Source: Flavobacteriales bacterium (GTDB lineage: Bacteria; Bacteroidota; Bacteroidia; Flavobacteriales; Weeksellaceae). Taken from it: 64,000 nucleotides of DNA. The stretch spans positions 1,135 to 65,134 of the forward strand of contig CAAGLV010000077.1 of the NCBI GenBank assembly GCA_900770875.1, given 5' to 3'. Under the pieces are notes generated by a model. The model saw nothing but the letters and a program-made list of their open reading frames with translations. It was not told the origin of the DNA and did no database searches. The translations under genes were made by a program, and so were the position numbers. Position 1 is the first letter of the stretch. Every line of letters begins with the position of its first letter. Positions 17,314-45,595 of this stretch are shown here, in pieces.

Positions 17314-17475
17314 AAAAAAAAATAACTACCAAATTAATTGATAGTTATTTCAATCCATAATGAATTTAGAAAAAAATATACAGTAGAAGGGCTCGAACCT
17401 TCGACCTCTATCGTCATAGCGCTCTCCCTACTGAGCTATACTGTACATTACTTTTAAAAGAACTCCACAAAGATA
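17314..17475 (-). ncRNA. Small RNA array unit D (contains tRNA-like element)
   Basis: TTTG-18 nt-TATCTTTG (17468-75); terminator AAATAACTATCA/TGGTAGTTATTT plus T-run (17314-17350). Confidence 0.65.
17379..17445 (-). tRNA. tRNA-like RNA with truncated anticodon arm (no assignable anticodon, no encoded CCA)
   Basis: TACAGTA-TA-GCTC-AGTAGGGA-GAGC-G-CTAT-GACG-ATAG-AGGTC-GAAGG-TTCGAGC-CCTTC-TACTGTA: perfect acceptor, D and T arms, but a 4-bp stem/4-nt loop replaces the 5-bp/7-nt anticodon arm. Confidence 0.8.
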
Positions 17476-26033: not shown

Positions 26034-26426
26034 ATGAGATTTTTCGATGACATATATCAAGACTCTTTAAAAGAGTTAAATATAAAATACGAGTTATTCT
26101 ATGCTTTCAATAAAGAACAATTTGACGAAGCTTTAAAAATTAGAAACAGAAAAGATTTAGGCTTTTATGTTAATATATCATATGGAGCTTATATTCCTAA
26201 TAAATTCAAAGAAGAATACAAAAAAGAATTGGATATTCTTTACAAAAAATCTATTCAAATTGACATAGAAGAAAACGGAAAGGATAAGATAATTCTAAGA
26301 GAATTAAATAACCACGAATGTTTCTATACAGGAGAAATTGACGATGCTGTAGATGCTGTACATAAATACGGATACACTTCTGATGATGTGTATAAAATCT
26401 ACAAAAAAGAACTAAAAAATAATTAA
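26034..26426 (+). CDS. Conserved phage/ICE hypothetical protein
   Basis: FYAFNKEQFDEA...RELNNHECFYTG pattern recalled from small mobile-element proteins. Confidence 0.65.
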   Translation: MRFFDDIYQDSLKELNIKYELFYAFNKEQFDEALKIRNRKDLGFYVNISYGAYIPNKFKEEYKKELDILYKKSIQIDIEENGKDKIILRELNNHECFYTGEIDDAVDAVHKYGYTSDDVYKIYKKELKNN

Positions 26427-27256: not shown

Positions 27257-27775
27257 ATGAAAACATTATTCAACATTATCAAATCATTAGGAAACGTAAG
27301 AGTAGCAATCTCTCAAACAGAAGAAAAATTAACAATCTCATTAATTCCAGATATTACAGGAATAAAAGATGAAGCTGTTAAATTGTTACAACCACTTCAT
27401 ATCTCAGCTCGTCTAGAAGATACAGAAGAACAAATTTGCGATTTAATTCTGGAATTTGCACCGAAAGCTATTGAAGAATTAGATTCGATGCGAGTATATC
27501 AAGAAGCTATTGATAAAATGGCAAATGAAAAAGCAGAAGCTAAAGCTAAAAAGGAACTCGAAGATAAACTTAAAAAAGAATTCAAAGATTCTGTATCAGC
27601 ATTAGAAAAAGCTTTCGATAAAAACGAACCTAAAGACGAAGAAAAACATACTAAGATGTTTCTAGAGTTTAAAGATAAATTCAAAGACATAGCTGGGTTT
27701 AATACAGTTTGCAACGATCTACAAAAAGCTTTCAACGAAAAGTATGTTTCATTCGATTTATTCTCTCAAATATAA
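27257..27775 (+). CDS. PRTRC system protein E
   Basis: LTISLIP...IKDEAVKLLQPLHIS...then coiled coil ending DLF; same layout as Bacteroidota PRTRC-E; upstream of the Ub/E2/E1 genes. Confidence 0.75.
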   Translation: MKTLFNIIKSLGNVRVAISQTEEKLTISLIPDITGIKDEAVKLLQPLHISARLEDTEEQICDLILEFAPKAIEELDSMRVYQEAIDKMANEKAEAKAKKELEDKLKKEFKDSVSALEKAFDKNEPKDEEKHTKMFLEFKDKFKDIAGFNTVCNDLQKAFNEKYVSFDLFSQI

Positions 27776-27780
27776 TTATT

Positions 27781-28032
27781 ATGGCAAAATTCAGAAAAGT
27801 AGAATTGTCAATTAGACGAGGTTCAGGATATGGCAATTATATAATTTCAGCAAATTATAAAGGTGTGGATATGGAAGTTCACACTCATAACGGAGAGTGT
27901 TACGATTATCTTGATGATGACGGAGAGAATGGTATTATCGATGATATAAAACGTCATAAGGAAAAACACCAAGAAGCTAAAAGATATGCTTATAGAAGAA
28001 TTGTAGAAGCTTATAAAAGACGGTATGAATAA
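27781..28032 (+). CDS. Hypothetical protein (start adjusted to ATG 27781)
   Basis: MAKFRKVELSIRRGSGYGNYIISANYKG..., inserted within the PRTRC cassette. Confidence 0.6.
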   Translation: MAKFRKVELSIRRGSGYGNYIISANYKGVDMEVHTHNGECYDYLDDDGENGIIDDIKRHKEKHQEAKRYAYRRIVEAYKRRYE

Positions 28033-28106
28033 AAGTGAAAATCATTTTTTCCATACACTCAACAACAAATAAAATATTCTAAAATTTTAAAATCATAAAA
28101 TAGAAA

Positions 28107-28313
28107 ATGGCAACAATTACAGAAATTAAAAGAAAAGTTATGTTTCAAGGTAAACAATTAACTGATATTAAAGAGTTAGAAATAGAGCAATTAAAAGCTC
28201 ATTATTCAGCTTTATATCCAGAACTTATAAATGCTCAAATAAGCAATTTAGGAATTGACCAAGATGGTCAAATGCTTTATGAATTTCAATTAAAAGTAGG
28301 AACTAACGGCTAA
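28107..28313 (+). CDS. PRTRC system protein C, prokaryotic ubiquitin-like protein (Prok_Ub)
   Basis: KRKVMFQGKQLTD...YSALYPELINA...YEFQLKVGTNG with C-terminal Gly. Confidence 0.88.
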   Translation: MATITEIKRKVMFQGKQLTDIKELEIEQLKAHYSALYPELINAQISNLGIDQDGQMLYEFQLKVGTNG

Positions 28314-29191
28314 TGTCATTACTAAAAACTGAAATATTCGATAGGGGAACTTCACAAAAAGTTCCTCTATTTTTATATCCAAACAATAACATTGAATACT
28401 ACGATGGTCCTATACCTCAATTTCATAAAACAATAATAAGTCAAGATGTTATAAATGTTATTCAATCTCATTTCGATAAAGAATTAACTATTTATGATGG
28501 TCAAGAAATAATAGATTATTTATTTAAAGATAAAACAGATGGATTAGAGTTAAGTGAAATTGTAGTTGAAGATGAAAGGATATTAATATTCTATAACGAT
28601 TCATTCAATTTCTTCGATATTATATTCATTGATGAATTAATAAAAATGGAAGATTGTTATGATAAAGAATTAATAGGGACTGCATTATCTATAATGTCTA
28701 ATCTATCTAAAAAACATTATGAAATGATAGAAGATATTGAAGATTTATCGGAAGAAGATAAGTTAGAGAATATTGAAACAGTAGAGTTTCGTAAGATTAT
28801 GAAAACTTTAGAATATAAGCATCAAGGAGATAAAACCATATTAAATCCTTACACTTTAGAATTGGTTAAAACTATAAAAGAGATTACACCTATTCTACAT
28901 GAGTTTAATGTTTATATGGATTTATACACAGATAATTCATCACCTTTCTTACCTATCTATATAACATCAGAAGTTTACGATGTCTTTATTTATGGATACG
29001 GCTCTTATATACATGAAAAAGAATATTTCTCATTACCAGTAGAATTTAATAATTCAGGAGAGAAATATTCTTATATGTTCAATCAATTAGAATCTTTATC
29101 AGAAGATATACAAAACAAGTTTAATAATATATACAACAAATGGCAAACATATCAGGAAAAGAAAACATCAGTTCAAACCCAGCATCATTAA
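28313..29191 (+). CDS. PRTRC system protein F-like acidic protein
   Basis: Position between the Ub and E2 genes with translational coupling; sequence alone is not diagnostic. Confidence 0.5.
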   Translation: MSLLKTEIFDRGTSQKVPLFLYPNNNIEYYDGPIPQFHKTIISQDVINVIQSHFDKELTIYDGQEIIDYLFKDKTDGLELSEIVVEDERILIFYNDSFNFFDIIFIDELIKMEDCYDKELIGTALSIMSNLSKKHYEMIEDIEDLSEEDKLENIETVEFRKIMKTLEYKHQGDKTILNPYTLELVKTIKEITPILHEFNVYMDLYTDNSSPFLPIYITSEVYDVFIYGYGSYIHEKEYFSLPVEFNNSGEKYSYMFNQLESLSEDIQNKFNNIYNKWQTYQEKKTSVQTQHH

Positions 29192-29754
29192 TAATAATTT
29201 ATACTGACGGTTATTCTGAGGTAGCTAAATATTCAGATACAGAAAAAAAATTCAAAGAGTTTAAAATAATAACTCAAGATGAATTAGAAGAACTGAAAAG
29301 CATAATAGGTATTAATAAAAACACAGAACAATTAATGCCTAGAAATATAGTTTCATATAAGGATATAAATAACTTCTCGTTTATAATAAAGAGAGGTTGG
29401 CAAAATCTTAAATTCTCAAAATTCCTTAATAAAGAAACTAACGAATATGAGTACAAAGAAATTTCCACTTACTTACCAGATTTATATGTAAAAGTCGTTC
29501 ATAACGAACTTTACTTCTTGGTAAAGAAAAATAATAAATTATACAAAAATCCATTACCAAATAACTTCTCTAACGGCTCTTTTTGTATCGGTTCAGCAGA
29601 TAAAAGTTTTATCACTGAACAAGTACTATCTGAAAAAGTAGAGTTAATTATACGAATGTATATTGATTCTATCTTTAGCCATAAAGTAAATCATGAAGTT
29701 TTAGACGATTGGTTTAATGGAAAAATTAACTACAAAAAATTAGAAGAATTATGA
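29140..29754 (+). CDS. PRTRC system protein B, prokaryotic E2 family D
   Basis: LYKNPLPNNFSNGSFCIGS...SIFSH matches the Prok-E2_D PxxN..xGxxCxG...S.FSH pattern. Confidence 0.8.
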   Translation: MANISGKENISSNPASLIIIYTDGYSEVAKYSDTEKKFKEFKIITQDELEELKSIIGINKNTEQLMPRNIVSYKDINNFSFIIKRGWQNLKFSKFLNKETNEYEYKEISTYLPDLYVKVVHNELYFLVKKNNKLYKNPLPNNFSNGSFCIGSADKSFITEQVLSEKVELIIRMYIDSIFSHKVNHEVLDDWFNGKINYKKLEEL

Positions 29755-30464
29755 TACATGTTAAACATAAATCATTATCTATTCATAATAGATACCACGA
29801 TTTTAATATAGCTTTAATTGGTTGTGGTGGTACAGGAAGTGCAATAGCAGAAGAAATAGGAAGATTACATTATTCTATGGTATATTCTGATATGCCAGGT
29901 GTTAAACTTCATATTATAGATCCTGATAAAGTAGAAAGTAAAAATATTGGTAGACAGAAATTTTACGCTAACAATATAAACAAATACAAAGCAGAAGTTT
30001 TAACACAAAGATTATCTCGTAATTTCCTTATGCGAAATGTATTCTCTCATTGTTCTAAAATAGAGGATATATCAAATGGATTAAAACAAACATTTGATAT
30101 TGTTATTTGCTGTGTAGATAACTATAAAGCACGCAGATATATTTACGATGTTTTTTCAGAAAAATATATTCTTGATATCGGAAACGAAAAAGACTTCGGA
30201 CAAATATTTTTGTCTAAGAAAAATGAGCTTAAACATACATTCGATGTATTTGGAATAGCAGAATCCAATAAGCAAAATAAAGAGTCTAATTATCGTTGTG
30301 GATATGCAGATCAATTTGAAGAACAAGGACTTTATATCAATTCTTTGCTTTCAATATATGCAGCAGAATTGCTTAAAGATTTTCTTACAAAAGATACCAT
30401 AGATTACAACTGTATCTTTGTGAACTTAAAAGATAAAACAACAATAAAAGCTTTTAAAGAATGA
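29751..30464 (+). CDS. PRTRC system ThiF/E1 family protein
   Basis: IALIGCGGTGS, DPDKVESKNIGRQKF, CCVDN, LDIGN..GQ, candidate catalytic Cys in YRCGY, QGLYIN. Confidence 0.92.
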   Translation: MIHVKHKSLSIHNRYHDFNIALIGCGGTGSAIAEEIGRLHYSMVYSDMPGVKLHIIDPDKVESKNIGRQKFYANNINKYKAEVLTQRLSRNFLMRNVFSHCSKIEDISNGLKQTFDIVICCVDNYKARRYIYDVFSEKYILDIGNEKDFGQIFLSKKNELKHTFDVFGIAESNKQNKESNYRCGYADQFEEQGLYINSLLSIYAAELLKDFLTKDTIDYNCIFVNLKDKTTIKAFKE

Positions 30465-30652
30465 AAAAAGAAATAGGAAAGAAAGTTACTTTCAGAGGAA
30501 CAGCAACTTACAACCATAGTGAAGATAGATGTGATTCTACAAACTCAAGAGGTAGTAATGAAGATGTGATTACCAAAGTTTTTACTCATGGTGTAAGAAC
30601 TAAAAAAAACGGATACGTTAATAATAAAAGAATTTTAAACATAGAAGAATAA
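30461..30652 (+). CDS. Hypothetical protein
   Basis: ATGA-coupled to the E1 gene. Confidence 0.5.
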   Translation: MKKEIGKKVTFRGTATYNHSEDRCDSTNSRGSNEDVITKVFTHGVRTKKNGYVNNKRILNIEE

Positions 30653-37774: not shown

Positions 37775-39656
37775 ATGAAAATAGAGTTCAATCAATTAAC
37801 AGAAGAACAGAAGATAGGAGTACAGAGAATAAAAGAGTTTGTTAATTCTCCTATTGATTTAAACGATTATCGAACAAGAGTTTTAGTATTAGTAGGACAA
37901 GCCGGAACAGGTAAAACTACTATGCTTAGAAATGGCTTAGAAGAAGTATTACAAGTAGATGAAAATATCGCTCACGAATCTATTAAAACTAGATATGATG
38001 CAGATTTATTTAATAATGGAGTACTTGGATGTGTCGGAGTAACAGTCGCTCATAAAGCGAAAAAAGTACTTAATCGTTCTATTAAAATTACTACAACATA
38101 CGCGGGATATTTTGGAATGATACAAGATAACGACGAATATGGTAATAAAATATTCGTTCCAAATCCAGACTTAAATAAACGTAATTCTTCTTTACATAAA
38201 AAACCTCATCGTGTAGCAGTGCATGATGAGGTTTCTATGTATGATGCTGATATGATTAATTATGTATTAGCAAATACGGACCCATTAACAAAGATAATTC
38301 TAGTCGGTAAATGGATTGCCGACTTTAAACCACTCTAATTGACTGGAAACCCCTTAGAGCCTTATACACTCCCTTGTTCAGTAATGAAACAAGTATAGTA
38401 AAAGAGATAAGGATTGGGCAATCAGCAGCGAAGATTCCTAATAGGAATAATGTTCAACGACTATCTCGCAAGAGAGTAGATTTTAAATTATCAATTAAAA
38501 TCGAAACGGGTGGATTGTGATAAGACTTTTTTATATACACAGAAAAATATCTAACGATGTTCCTTTTTACATAGGAAAAGGAACTAGATATAGATGTCTT
38601 GATTTTAATTCAAGGACTGAGCATTGGAAAAGAACAGCTAATAAACATGTATTTAAATATCACAATAAGATATAGTCTAATCTTATTAGAAATAATAAGT
38701 TCTAAAAATGTAAAGAAATGATAAACTTTATATATAAGTTTTTAGAAAAAATCCTGGATCCAGGACAACTTCCGCCAATCAAGGAAACAGGAGAAGATGG
38801 ATATTTATCTGATGAAGATTCTCCAGCTTTTACTTGGTTTAAGGATAATATGATTGTTCTTACTAAAAAAGTAAGACAAACAGAAGGTAATCCTATTATA
38901 GAATTAACAGATTTCATTTATAAAGAAATCTTTTCTACACACGATTTAGCTTCTGTATTACAAACTATGTCTGTACCTAACTATAATGAAGGTATAGGAT
39001 ATACAATGCTTAAATATGTAGACTTTTTAAGAACATATACTTCGGTAACTACATCTTATATAGATTCTAAGATTTTAGCTTACAGAAATGATACAGTTAA
39101 TTACATGAATGATTCTATTAGAAATTTCATTTATAATAATCCTACACAAGAAATAATTGAAGGAGAATTGATTTATATGTCAAGTACTTTTCAATGCTCA
39201 AGAAAAGGATTCTTATATAATTCAGATGAGTATCTAATAGACTCAATACATATCGTTGTAGAGAAAGAAGTTGAATGTTATAAATGTATTGTTAATAAAG
39301 GAGGTCATGATCATTTAATAAATGAACATAATCCTTTTTTCTTAATTCCAACTGCTCAAGGAAAAATACAATTTCAAAATGTATCTATCCAATTAAAGAG
39401 ATTTGCAATTCAAGAAAAGGATAATTTCAAGAAGAAAAAAGCTTGGGCTAGATATCTTAATTATATTAATAATTTCGCTACAATTTCTTACGGATATTGT
39501 TATACTTCTCATAAGTCTCAAGGTTCGACGTTTAAGAATGTATTTGTAGATGTCAATGATATTATAACATCTACAAGATTATCTAACAAGAGAAAGCTAC
39601 AAGCGTTATACACAGCTATAACAAGAGCTTCACACTCAGTATATTTTTTACATTAA
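37775..39656 (+). CDS. Dda/RecD-like SF1 helicase, intron-split (exons 37775-38308 and 38757-39656; 477 aa spliced)
   Basis: GQAGTGKT and DEVSM; splicing restores motif III ILVG|DPGQLPP; VRQ, HKSQGSTF, YTAITRA. Confidence 0.9.
38309..38756 (+). ncRNA. Group I intron
   Basis: Exon ends in U and intron ends in G; P1 GTCGGT/GCCGAC; P10 TGGATT/GATCCA; P (AATTGACTGGAAAC), Q (AATCAGCAG), R (TCAACGACTA) and S (AAGATATAGTC) core elements. Confidence 0.92.
38517..38675 (+). pseudogene. Truncated GIY-YIG homing endonuclease remnant in the intron P8 loop
   Basis: VIRLFYIHRKISNDVPFYIGKGTRYRCLDFNSRTEHWKRTANKH...stop; bracketed by P8 ATTGTGATA/TATCACAAT. Confidence 0.75.
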
Positions 39657-44688: not shown

Positions 44689-45384
44689 ATGAGAAAGTTT
44701 TTTTACGATACAGAATTTTGTGAGGGAGTTCAACAAAATTTAAACAAACCTACAATAGATTTAATTTCAATCGGAATTGTAGATGAAGAAGGAAATGAAT
44801 ATTATGCTATTTCTAATGACTTTAATTTAAGTAATGCATGGCATAAAAACGATAATACTGTAGCAGAACCAAATTATTGGTTAAGAGAAAATGTACTTAA
44901 AAAAGTATTTAATGATTTAAGAAAATTTGATAATGATGATTTATATGAATATTTTACTTTAGAAAATCTTTATACGTTATTACAAGATTATGGTAAATCA
45001 AATTATACTATTCAGAAAGAAATTTTAGATTTTATCAAACCATCAAAAGAATCTCCAGTAGAATTATATGGTTATTATTCTGCTTACGACCATGTTGTTT
45101 TATGTTGGTTATTTGATAAAATGATTGATTTACCAGAAGGAATGCCAATGTACACTACTGATTTAAGACAAATGATTGATATAAAAATAAATGATGTTAT
45201 TAACAATATTTGTTATAGTTCAGGAAATCATACTATATGGAATAAAAAAGAAGCGTTAGATTTTATTAAATCAAAACATGATTATCCTAAACAATCTAAT
45301 GAACATAATGCTTTAGATGACGCTAAATGGAATTTAGAATTATATAAATTTTTAACTAAAAAAGAAAACAATGAAAAAAAATAA
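44689..45384 (+). CDS. DEDDh 3'-5' exonuclease (Rv2179c-like exoribonuclease)
   Basis: FFYDTEF, LISIGIV, YYSAYDHV, HNALDDAKW. Confidence 0.88.
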   Translation: MRKFFYDTEFCEGVQQNLNKPTIDLISIGIVDEEGNEYYAISNDFNLSNAWHKNDNTVAEPNYWLRENVLKKVFNDLRKFDNDDLYEYFTLENLYTLLQDYGKSNYTIQKEILDFIKPSKESPVELYGYYSAYDHVVLCWLFDKMIDLPEGMPMYTTDLRQMIDIKINDVINNICYSSGNHTIWNKKEALDFIKSKHDYPKQSNEHNALDDAKWNLELYKFLTKKENNEKK

Positions 45385-45595
45385 CCAACAATTTCAATAC
45401 ATGATGTTAGGAAGATTAGTTTCTGATTGTGAATACTATTTAGGTAATGGAGGTAGAAATCCTAAAAACCTTTGGGCATTAGAAGAGAAAGAACATATTT
45501 CTGAAATGAAAAAGATTTATAATCAATTAGAGGTTAAACCTGAATGGTTATCTATGGAAGATATTAAAGAGTATGAATCTAAAATGACACAATAA
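45371..45595 (+). CDS. LPD11 domain protein
   Basis: YMMLGRLVSDCEYYLGNG...LWA...KPEWLSMEDIKEYE. Confidence 0.75.
   Translation: MKKNNQQFQYMMLGRLVSDCEYYLGNGGRNPKNLWALEEKEHISEMKKIYNQLEVKPEWLSMEDIKEYESKMTQ

Follow-up and report, generated by a model that had tools for sequence, protein, structure and literature searches.

A reduced PRTRC-type ubiquitin-like cassette without a JAB peptidase in the replication gene block of a putatively crAss-like phage

Can a phage carry a working system for ubiquitin-like protein tagging that has no peptidase, and on what would the tag be placed? This question is raised by a gene cassette at positions 27257-30464 of the window, the 64,000-nucleotide stretch of DNA analyzed in this study (G000:C77:1135-65134). 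The window lies on C77, a contig of 71,477 bp that is the longest in a metagenome bin of 2.67 Mb with a guanine-cytosine (GC) content of 31.5%. The cassette encodes a ubiquitin-like protein (Ubl), an E2-like protein and a ThiF-type E1, together with a PRTRC-E-like protein, a protein of 83 amino acids (aa) and an F-position protein. An earlier reading made from the DNA letters alone (the sequence-only reading) had described a PRTRC-type Ubl/E2/E1 cassette on a phage contig. In this study, family and profile matches, the presence of terminase, portal and DnaB genes, and the matches of the large terminase (TerL) agreed with this description. On balance, we favor the reading that this reduced PRTRC (type 6d) cassette, which lacks JAB and ParB and lies in the replication gene block, is an active conjugation system.

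The cassette and its E1 and E2 proteins

Canonical PRTRC cassettes are covered by the NCBIfam models TIGR03734-03742. A comparison of gene content indicates that PRTRC matches operon type 6d, which was described by Iyer, Burroughs and Aravind in 2006 (PMC1779556, available text). The six annotated PRTRC proteins of Ralstonia phage Dina served as seeds for local jackhmmer profiles, which we built on PRTRC loci in phage and viral sequences. As shown in Table 1, all six open reading frames (ORFs) of the cassette were intact and formed one coupled run on the plus strand, in the order E, 83-aa gene, Ubl, F-position protein, E2 and E1. The sequence-only reading had placed five of them correctly and had overlooked the 83-aa gene. 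The local profiles matched four proteins of the window, namely PRTRC-E (E 1.1e-18), the Ubl (E 4.5e-16), E2 (E 1.4e-28) and E1 (E 5.2e-65). Neighboring genes overlapped by 1 nt (Ubl and F-position gene), 52 nt (F-position gene and E2) and 4 nt (E2 and E1, and again E1 and the 63-aa ORF that follows). The number of promoter-like sites (34) was not above the 30.3 expected from shuffling.

Table 1. Coordinates of features in the window and in the related loci named in the text
Feature	Location	Strand	Basis or remark
PRTRC-E-like protein, 172 aa	27257..27775	+	PF19556 over cut-off
Conserved small protein, 83 aa, between E and Ubl	27781..28032 (ATG at 27781)	+	7 relatives; no family match
Ubl (PRTRC-C / Prok_Ub), 68 aa	28107..28313	+	PF14454
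Orphan F-position protein, 292 aa	28313..29191	+	Position; no family match
E2-like protein (PRTRC-B / Prok-E2_D), 204 aa; Cys149, Gly151, Phe179, His181	29140..29754	+	Local profile, PF14460
E1 (PRTRC ThiF family), 237 aa; G24xGGTGS30, R68-Q69, D123, Cys183	29751..30464	+	TIGR03736
63-aa ORF, start overlapping the E1 stop	30461..30652	+	No family match (Pfam, NCBIfam, PADLOC)
Fusion of ResIII/SNF2-type helicase and N6-adenine methyltransferase, 916 aa	30970-33720	+	Directly after the cassette
DUF7659	26034-26426	+	E 5e-21
LPD11 (large polyvalent protein-associated domain 11)	45371-45595	+	E 2e-31
Dda-like helicase, AAA_19/AAA_30 half	37775-38338	+	
Dda-like helicase, UvrD_C_2 half	38718-39656	+	
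ORF of 4069 aa	46029-58238	-	No PHROG match at E 1e-5
tRNA	17378-17445	-	Rfam, 49.5 bits
crAss001-like JAB-like/ThiF pair, Bacteroides phage DAC15	L003 3590-5699		
crAss001-like JAB-like/ThiF pair, crAssphage cr111_1	L004 3640-5645		
dnaN inside a JAB-less cassette	L075 4326-5420		
dnaN directly upstream of a JAB-less cassette	L007 2449-3606		
dnaN directly upstream of a JAB-less cassette	L008 1404-2531		
RVT_1, about 2.5 kb downstream of a JAB-less cassette	L030 11200-12123		

The order E, Ubl, F-position protein, E2 and ThiF E1 is that of canonical PRTRC, which is likewise borne by mobile elements. The window differs from it in several respects. It is without PRTRC-A (DUF2016 plus JAB) and ParB, and it has the extra gene between E and Ubl. 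Its Ubl stops at a Gly, whereas that of Dina is 129 aa long with a C-terminal extension. The canonical F is an alpha-hel2 protein (PF14456), and the F-position protein of the window is unrelated to it by sequence. The absence of a JAB peptidase and of ParB, claimed earlier, was upheld. The local F and JAB (PRTRC-A) profiles gave zero matches in the window, and the overlap between the E2 stop and the E1 start leaves no room for PRTRC-A between these genes. A Prok-JAB search across the whole bin gave two weak matches only (E 0.04 and 0.14), both off C77. The sole ParB_N match in the bin was on contig C51; none was on C77, and Pfam found no ParB among the plus-strand genes of the window.

E1 scored 147.6 bits with TIGR03736 PRTRC_ThiF against a cut-off of 144.75, and matched PF00899 with E 1e-19. 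It carries the motifs GCGGTGS, GRQ, CVDN and YRCG. We aligned it with ten close and seven more distant PRTRC-type relatives (18 sequences, the window's own clade making up 11). Invariant in this alignment were G24xGGTGS30, D57, D59, N65, R68-Q69, K80, D123, R128, D142, G144, N145 and a single Cys, Cys183. The ten close relatives retain all of these columns at 47-89% identity to the window. When the E1 profile was run against PDB sequences, the best matches were the eukaryotic proteins UBA6, UBA3 and UBA5 (E 3e-14 to 1e-10), followed by ThiF/MoeB (E 3e-7 to 1e-6) and then by Cap2 and BubCD. Identity was 25-36% to canonical PRTRC members and at most 33% to JAB-less loci from IMG/VR. Profile scans of JGI metagenomes and GTDB genomes for the close clade of E1 returned only distant PRTRC loci (identity at most 38%), a single-protein scan of IMG/VR with E1 gave no confirmed match, and the cassette DNA had no match in INPHARED.

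The E2-like protein contains PLPNNFSNGSFCIG. Among 91 non-redundant PRTRC-B relatives from the fetched loci, Cys149, Gly151 and Phe179 were invariant, and Pro138 and Asn141 were conserved at 96-99%. A His stands two residues after the Phe in 69 of the 91 and at most four residues from it in 83; in the window it is His181. This agrees with the "conserved cysteine and downstream histidine" that the available text of PMC1779556 gives for type 6d E2s. Conservation in relatives therefore bears out the earlier claim that both E1 and E2 hold their catalytic residues. No match to E2 or to the Ubl was found by tblastn in INPHARED, and the E, E2 and Ubl profiles had no credible match among PDB sequences. 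In the hidden Markov model (HMM) search that the sequence-only reading had proposed, PRTRC_ThiF, Prok_Ub and PRTRC_E scored over their cut-offs, while Prok-E2_D fell 1 bit short and TIGR03738 and TIGR03741 also stayed under theirs. The assignment of the putative E2 is based on profile evidence and invariant residues; the curated cut-offs are not reached.

The Ubl terminus and the absence of JAB among related loci

The Ubl ends in KVGTNG directly before the stop codon, and Gly68 is its last residue, as had been read earlier. It matched PF14454 Prok_Ub with E 5.1e-12 (45.8 against a cut-off of 25). An AlphaFold2 model built from a 16-sequence alignment had a mean predicted local distance difference test (pLDDT) of 82.6 and showed the beta-grasp order of elements, strand-strand-helix-helix-strand-strand, followed by a flexible tail. 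When this model was compared with the PDB by Foldseek, nearly all of the 50 listed rows were SUMO, ubiquitin or NEDD8. The model is compatible with a beta-grasp fold and is no proof of it. In a relative on a 4,996-bp contig, the Ubl was 99% identical to that of the window, E1 89% and the F-position protein 87%, which would fit strong constraint on the tag. From its end, the tag is predicted to be encoded in finished form and to need no trimming.

We scanned IMG/VR with a profile of the E1 alignment. This gave 143 candidate stretches. A relative is encoded in 127 of them, from which we retained the best 80. With 15 metagenome loci, five GTDB loci and three annotated phage regions, 103 related loci were obtained, and ORFs were called in all of them. 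The JAB profile covered the fetched loci up to 8-10 kb on either side of the E1 gene. The order E-C-F-B-A-ThiF was found in 39 loci and, with one further gene, in another 9; C-B-A-ThiF was found in 16. The layout E-C-B-ThiF, without JAB and without a recognizable F, was present in 14 loci including the window, and C-B-ThiF in 3. The remaining loci belong to smaller architecture classes, some of which are cuts at contig ends.

The Ubl of the JAB-less loci was 67-75 aa long and ended in Gly in 19 of 19 loci (18 of 18 when non-redundant). In JAB-bearing loci, by contrast, the median Ubl length was 134 aa and a Gly end was seen in only 3 of 66 non-redundant cases. The association of JAB loss with a Gly-ended Ubl had a Fisher p of 1.4e-15, uncorrected for relatedness. 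On a simple reading of these sequences, JAB would be needed mainly for trimming the precursor and would be dispensable once the tag is encoded finished. The available text of the Bub preprint takes a similar view of the JAB domain of BubCD (PMC11601596). The GC of the JAB-less loci was 26-52%, and the median of the others was 61%. A quick maximum-likelihood tree of E1 with a midpoint root, supported by the Shimodaira-Hasegawa-like approximate likelihood ratio test (SH-aLRT) only, placed the E1 of the window and its ten close relatives on a separate long branch (11 rows, SH-aLRT 99).

The JAB-less layout recurs in other phage and prophage loci, and that of the window is not unique. JAB-less loci of low-GC prophages and phages from IMG/VR (for example L007, L008, L030, L051 and L075) share with the window E, a short Ubl ending in G-x-[KN]-G, an F-position protein and an E2 abutting E1. 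They also lie in replication modules, by DnaB or dnaN. They differ in their F-position proteins, which are about 340-500 aa long and show no similarity to that of the window. L007 and L008 are integrase-bearing prophages, whereas the phage of the window is large and putatively crAss-like at a distance.

Accessory proteins and the replication gene block

PRTRC-E of the window matched PF19556 PRTRC_E with E 3e-8 (34.1 bits against a cut-off of 26). In the alignment, PRTRC-E proteins open with about 75 conserved residues that form an N-terminal domain; a variable linker, coiled or of low complexity, leads from it to a short tail. The window protein has a helical linker rich in Lys and Glu and a tail ending in YVSFDLFSQI. 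Among 64 non-redundant E proteins, 48 carry the pattern [LIVMF][DNSE][LIMV]([FLYW]|P[ILV]) in their last 9 residues, for example as GVDLL, TLNLF, GLDLF or GLDLPI, compared with 42 of 3527 background ORFs of at least 100 aa from the same loci. MAFFT aligned FDLF of the window with this tail motif.

Counting the window's own record, the 83-aa protein has 7 relatives, which are 49-100% identical to it. We take its ORF to be a real gene because the remaining relatives are at 49-74% identity. Searched as an 82-aa form from 27784, it had no family match in Pfam, NCBIfam, PHROGs or PADLOC. The F-position protein had just 7 relatives among 1.84 billion cluster representatives and no match in the same four collections. 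Jackhmmer started from it over all fetched loci returned only itself, its structural model had no significant fold match (Foldseek against PDB and BFVD; ESM Atlas), and a by-eye comparison of its family with other F proteins gave no defensible shared N-terminal motif. The earlier reading of an F-position protein thus holds for its position; as a homologue of PRTRC_F it does not stand, since no similarity was found. In the model (pLDDT 70.8), helices dominate from residue 107 on, and the first 60 residues are predicted to be disordered, although most invariant columns fall within them. An N-terminus that is disordered and yet the best conserved part would suit a docking segment, and the protein is likely a lineage-specific partner or specificity factor. 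Four F relatives and close E1 relatives share the same longest-contig sizes (4996, 8063, 26514 and 81602 bp), and the two families appear to lie on the same contigs.

The phage genes of the contig include a large terminase (phrog_6681, E 8e-56), a portal (phrog_6547, E 2.8e-30) and a DnaB-like helicase. By tblastn, TerL matched 29 INPHARED records, only of Crassvirales/crAss-like or FpV4-like Flavobacterium phages, at 22-25% identity, and the portal had no match there beyond its PHROG profile. Because of these distant TerL relatives and the unmatched portal, we call the phage distantly crAss-like with moderate confidence. It is large and apparently of a virulent type. crAss-like phages should encode a giant virion protein; the 4069-aa ORF had no PHROG match. 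Both ends of C77 run on with large minus-strand ORFs, on the strand of the structural genes as judged from the ORFs only, and C77 may not be the whole phage genome. The window's own 83-aa protein and Ubl (27781-28313) are also recorded from a contig of 79,434 bp, which exceeds C77 in length, and there is probably a fuller assembly of this phage. Rfam called a tRNA where the minus- and plus-strand gene blocks meet; ARAGORN found no tRNA in the window.

The sequence-only reading had put the cassette in the early region of the phage. A better description is the replication gene block, since the helicase-methylase and DnaB follow the cassette on the plus strand. The 916-aa helicase-methylase, which aligned near full length to phrog_10691 (E 6e-235), a family of phage proteins of 3925 aa, resembles a single module of a large polyvalent protein and may have an anti-restriction function. 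DUF7659 and LPD11 bracket the replication block. A Dda-like helicase in the window appears to be split into two ORFs about 380 bp apart, and Rfam found no intron between the halves.

We ran Pfam on 109 ORFs of seven JAB-less loci. L007 and L008, which are prophages, had the order integrase, dnaN, E, Ubl, F-position gene, E2, E1, methylase and terminase, with a portal next in L007. DnaB was just upstream of the cassette in L030 and downstream of it in L051. In L078, a topoisomerase adjoins the cassette, with CBASS (an antiphage system that signals by cyclic oligonucleotides) and a type I restriction system nearby; this locus looks more like an integrative and conjugative element (ICE) or a defense island. 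Of the fetched loci, 9 contain dnaN, and 5 of these are JAB-less. Downstream of the L030 cassette there are an HNH nuclease and a reverse transcriptase; the reverse transcriptase recalls a 2026 preprint, the available text of which describes how PRTRC protein B varies recurrently in a Phocaeicola prophage, a variation that its authors tie to a diversity-generating retroelement.

PRTRC had been said to be known mainly from plasmids and ICEs. This is too narrow, because PRTRC is already annotated in phages and prophages. RefSeq annotates the full E-C-F-B-A-ThiF cassette in Ralstonia phage Dina (NC_055026, gp07 to gp02), and the available text of PMC13366799, from 2026, describes one in a Burkholderia prophage, with its function stated as not studied. 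The PRTRC-type ThiF proteins encoded by most of the IMG/VR candidate stretches tell the same way. No paper on ThiF in crAss-like phages was found in the literature searched. crAss001-like phages (Steigviridae: cr111_1 and DAC15) also have a ThiF-family E1 in the replication block, which covers 54-66% of the window's E1 at 27-31% identity. It is preceded by a protein of 365-415 aa with a weak Prok-JAB match under the cut-off (E 7e-4 and 6.5e-5), and the PRTRC profiles found no E, Ubl or E2 in these loci. The annotation of these ThiF genes as "thiamine biosynthesis protein" is probably misleading.

Proposed mechanism and rival explanations

The biochemical part of our reading, which we consider probable from homology and the conserved residues, is as follows. 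In a first step, the ThiF-type E1 would act on the ready-made Ubl by adenylating its Gly68; the Ubl would then probably be loaded onto the invariant Cys183 of E1. From there it would be handed as a thioester to Cys149 of E2 and end on lysines of target proteins. There would be no trimming step and no tag-removing enzyme supplied by the phage. The fast-evolving F-position protein may select or present the target. PRTRC-E could serve as a tether, its FDLF tail likely docking on a hub of the replisome, for instance the sliding clamp. On this view, proteins would be tagged where DNA is being replicated, which would favor phage replication or establishment. This replisome-docked role, taken on its own, is put forward tentatively. 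A narrower version seems unlikely, in which PRTRC-E docks on the host sliding clamp through FDLF, and the clamp or clamp-bound host proteins are tagged irreversibly and the host replisome is redirected to phage DNA.

Several observations weigh against this reading. Literature searches (supplements outside their scope) found no functional study of PRTRC or type 6d. Curated models fell short for three proteins: the Ubl scored 44.1 with TIGR03738 (cut-off 45.95), E2 scored 23.9 with PF14460 Prok-E2_D (E 3.9e-5, cut-off 25) and 22 with TIGR03737 (cut-off 131), and PRTRC-E scored 27.3 with TIGR03741 (cut-off 37.95). None of the Foldseek matches of the Ubl model was significant (best E 0.19, TM about 0.5). 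By hhalign, the F-position protein had a probability of 0.6% with canonical F and below 1% with the F-position proteins of other JAB-less loci; its role is guessed from position alone, and its link to the E1 clade is an indirect match of contig sizes. The JAB-less E1 rows did not form one clade, with at least five changes on the quick tree. The enrichment of the E tail pattern is descriptive only, as the pattern was written after the tails were seen and the sequences are related. The motif of the window lies 3 residues from the C-terminus, and several JAB-less E proteins have no C-terminal motif but an internal GSLFG, PSLFG or QPDMF. The tail resembles the consensus of bacterial sliding-clamp-binding peptides, but an SSB-tip-like (acidic-hydrophobic) or other docking motif would suit it equally, and no tool result tied it to the clamp or to SSB. 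The window itself has no dnaN and no recognizable DNA polymerase.

Characterized bacterial systems offer the nearest comparison. Bil (BilABCD), Type II CBASS with Cap2/Cap3, and Bub have an E1 adenylation domain of the same superfamily, an E2-like carrier, a Ubl or a Ubl-like C-terminus, and a place on mobile DNA. According to the available text of PMC10557695 and PMC11601596, these systems are host-encoded, and CBASS and Bil were shown to be anti-phage. A JAB peptidase is found in every characterized system, and the Bub operons all have the BubE protease in addition (PMC11601596, available text). Cap2 is an E2-E1 fusion and Bub forms oxyesters without a catalytic Cys, whereas the window has a separate E1 and E2, an invariant Cys and no peptidase, and is phage-encoded. 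In PADLOC, the Ubl, E2, E and F-position proteins matched no model, and only the adenylation domain of E1 was matched in part (Cap2-type E1-E2 models over residues 11-139, up to E 2.4e-15; BilD, E 0.004). Because of these missing matches the cassette is not a member of CBASS, Bil or Bub, and with no peptidase present we rejected such membership.

These relatives nevertheless bear on the proposal of the sequence-only reading that the phage attaches the tag, perhaps irreversibly, to its own proteins or to those of the host, for host takeover or counter-defense. The data are compatible with it. Here the chemistry would be the same, but the tag would go to immune or housekeeping proteins of the host, without a link to the replisome, and F would track the host targets in an arms race. 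The characterized bacterial relatives (CBASS Cap2, Bil and probably Bub), so far as the available texts go, all have a part in the conflict between phage and host. The helicase-methylase next to the cassette, with its match to giant phage proteins, and the small LPD11 and DUF7659 domains associated with large polyvalent proteins would suit such a role, as would the tiny, divergent F family and the recurrent variation of protein B in the Phocaeicola prophage. The cassette proteins other than E1, however, match no defense model, and E1 itself is Cap2-type only in part and matches BilD weakly. The proposal also leaves the conserved E tail motif and the repeated adjacency to DnaB, dnaN or topoisomerase unexplained. 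We regard it as possible but doubtful as a separate explanation; it and the replisome-docked role can overlap.

Sulfur-carrier chemistry would use the same two core proteins differently, E1 making a Ubl thiocarboxylate as ThiF/ThiS and MoeB/MoaD do, for the thiolation of a cofactor, tRNA or DNA. E1 is indeed matched by NF006395 (E 1.4e-15) and TIGR02356 (E 2.3e-11), related crAss-like records label their ThiF genes as thiamine biosynthesis proteins, and the Ubl is a small, putatively beta-grasp protein with a Gly end like the sulfur carriers. The operon, however, has a dedicated E2-like protein with an invariant Cys, and Pfam found no rhodanese, cysteine desulfurase, or thiazole or molybdopterin synthase in the plus-strand gene block. 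The E1 profile favors eukaryotic E1s over ThiF/MoeB, and the ThiF and MoeB equivalog models gave 20-57 bits against cut-offs of 152-510. With scores this far under the cut-offs and no partner genes in the block, membership in ThiF/ThiS or MoeB/MoaD was rejected, and we consider this chemistry very unlikely. It is also hardly credible that the cassette is an inert passenger, such as a decaying ICE or prophage remnant, or a chimera of phage and mobile element made in assembly. The bin has an estimated contamination of 8.2%, the canonical JAB and ParB are missing, and the F-position protein is unrecognizable. But all six ORFs are intact and coupled, the GC of the cassette (0.26-0.28) equals that of its flanks, and both contig ends continue on the structural-gene strand. 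The catalytic residues are invariant across a clade of 47-89% identity, contigs of 26-82 kb carry E1 and F relatives, and the Ubl and 83-aa protein recur on the longer contig mentioned above. The JAB-less layout, moreover, is found again in loci with terminase and portal genes.

The reading that we favor, an active conjugation system in the replication block, has consequences for the whole family. PRTRC/6d is the only one of the five operon types of Iyer and colleagues for which no functional study was found, and phages and prophages prove to carry it commonly. The window holds a minimal self-contained set of Ubl, E1, E2 and two or three helpers. Tagging of the clamp, if true, would be a bacterial and viral counterpart of the ubiquitylation or SUMOylation of PCNA, and would give the PRTRC/6d family its first function. 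The link of JAB loss to a tag encoded ready for use, the position of the cassette among replication genes and the conserved tail motif of E together suggest specific, testable ideas on how mobile elements may use ubiquitin-like tagging.

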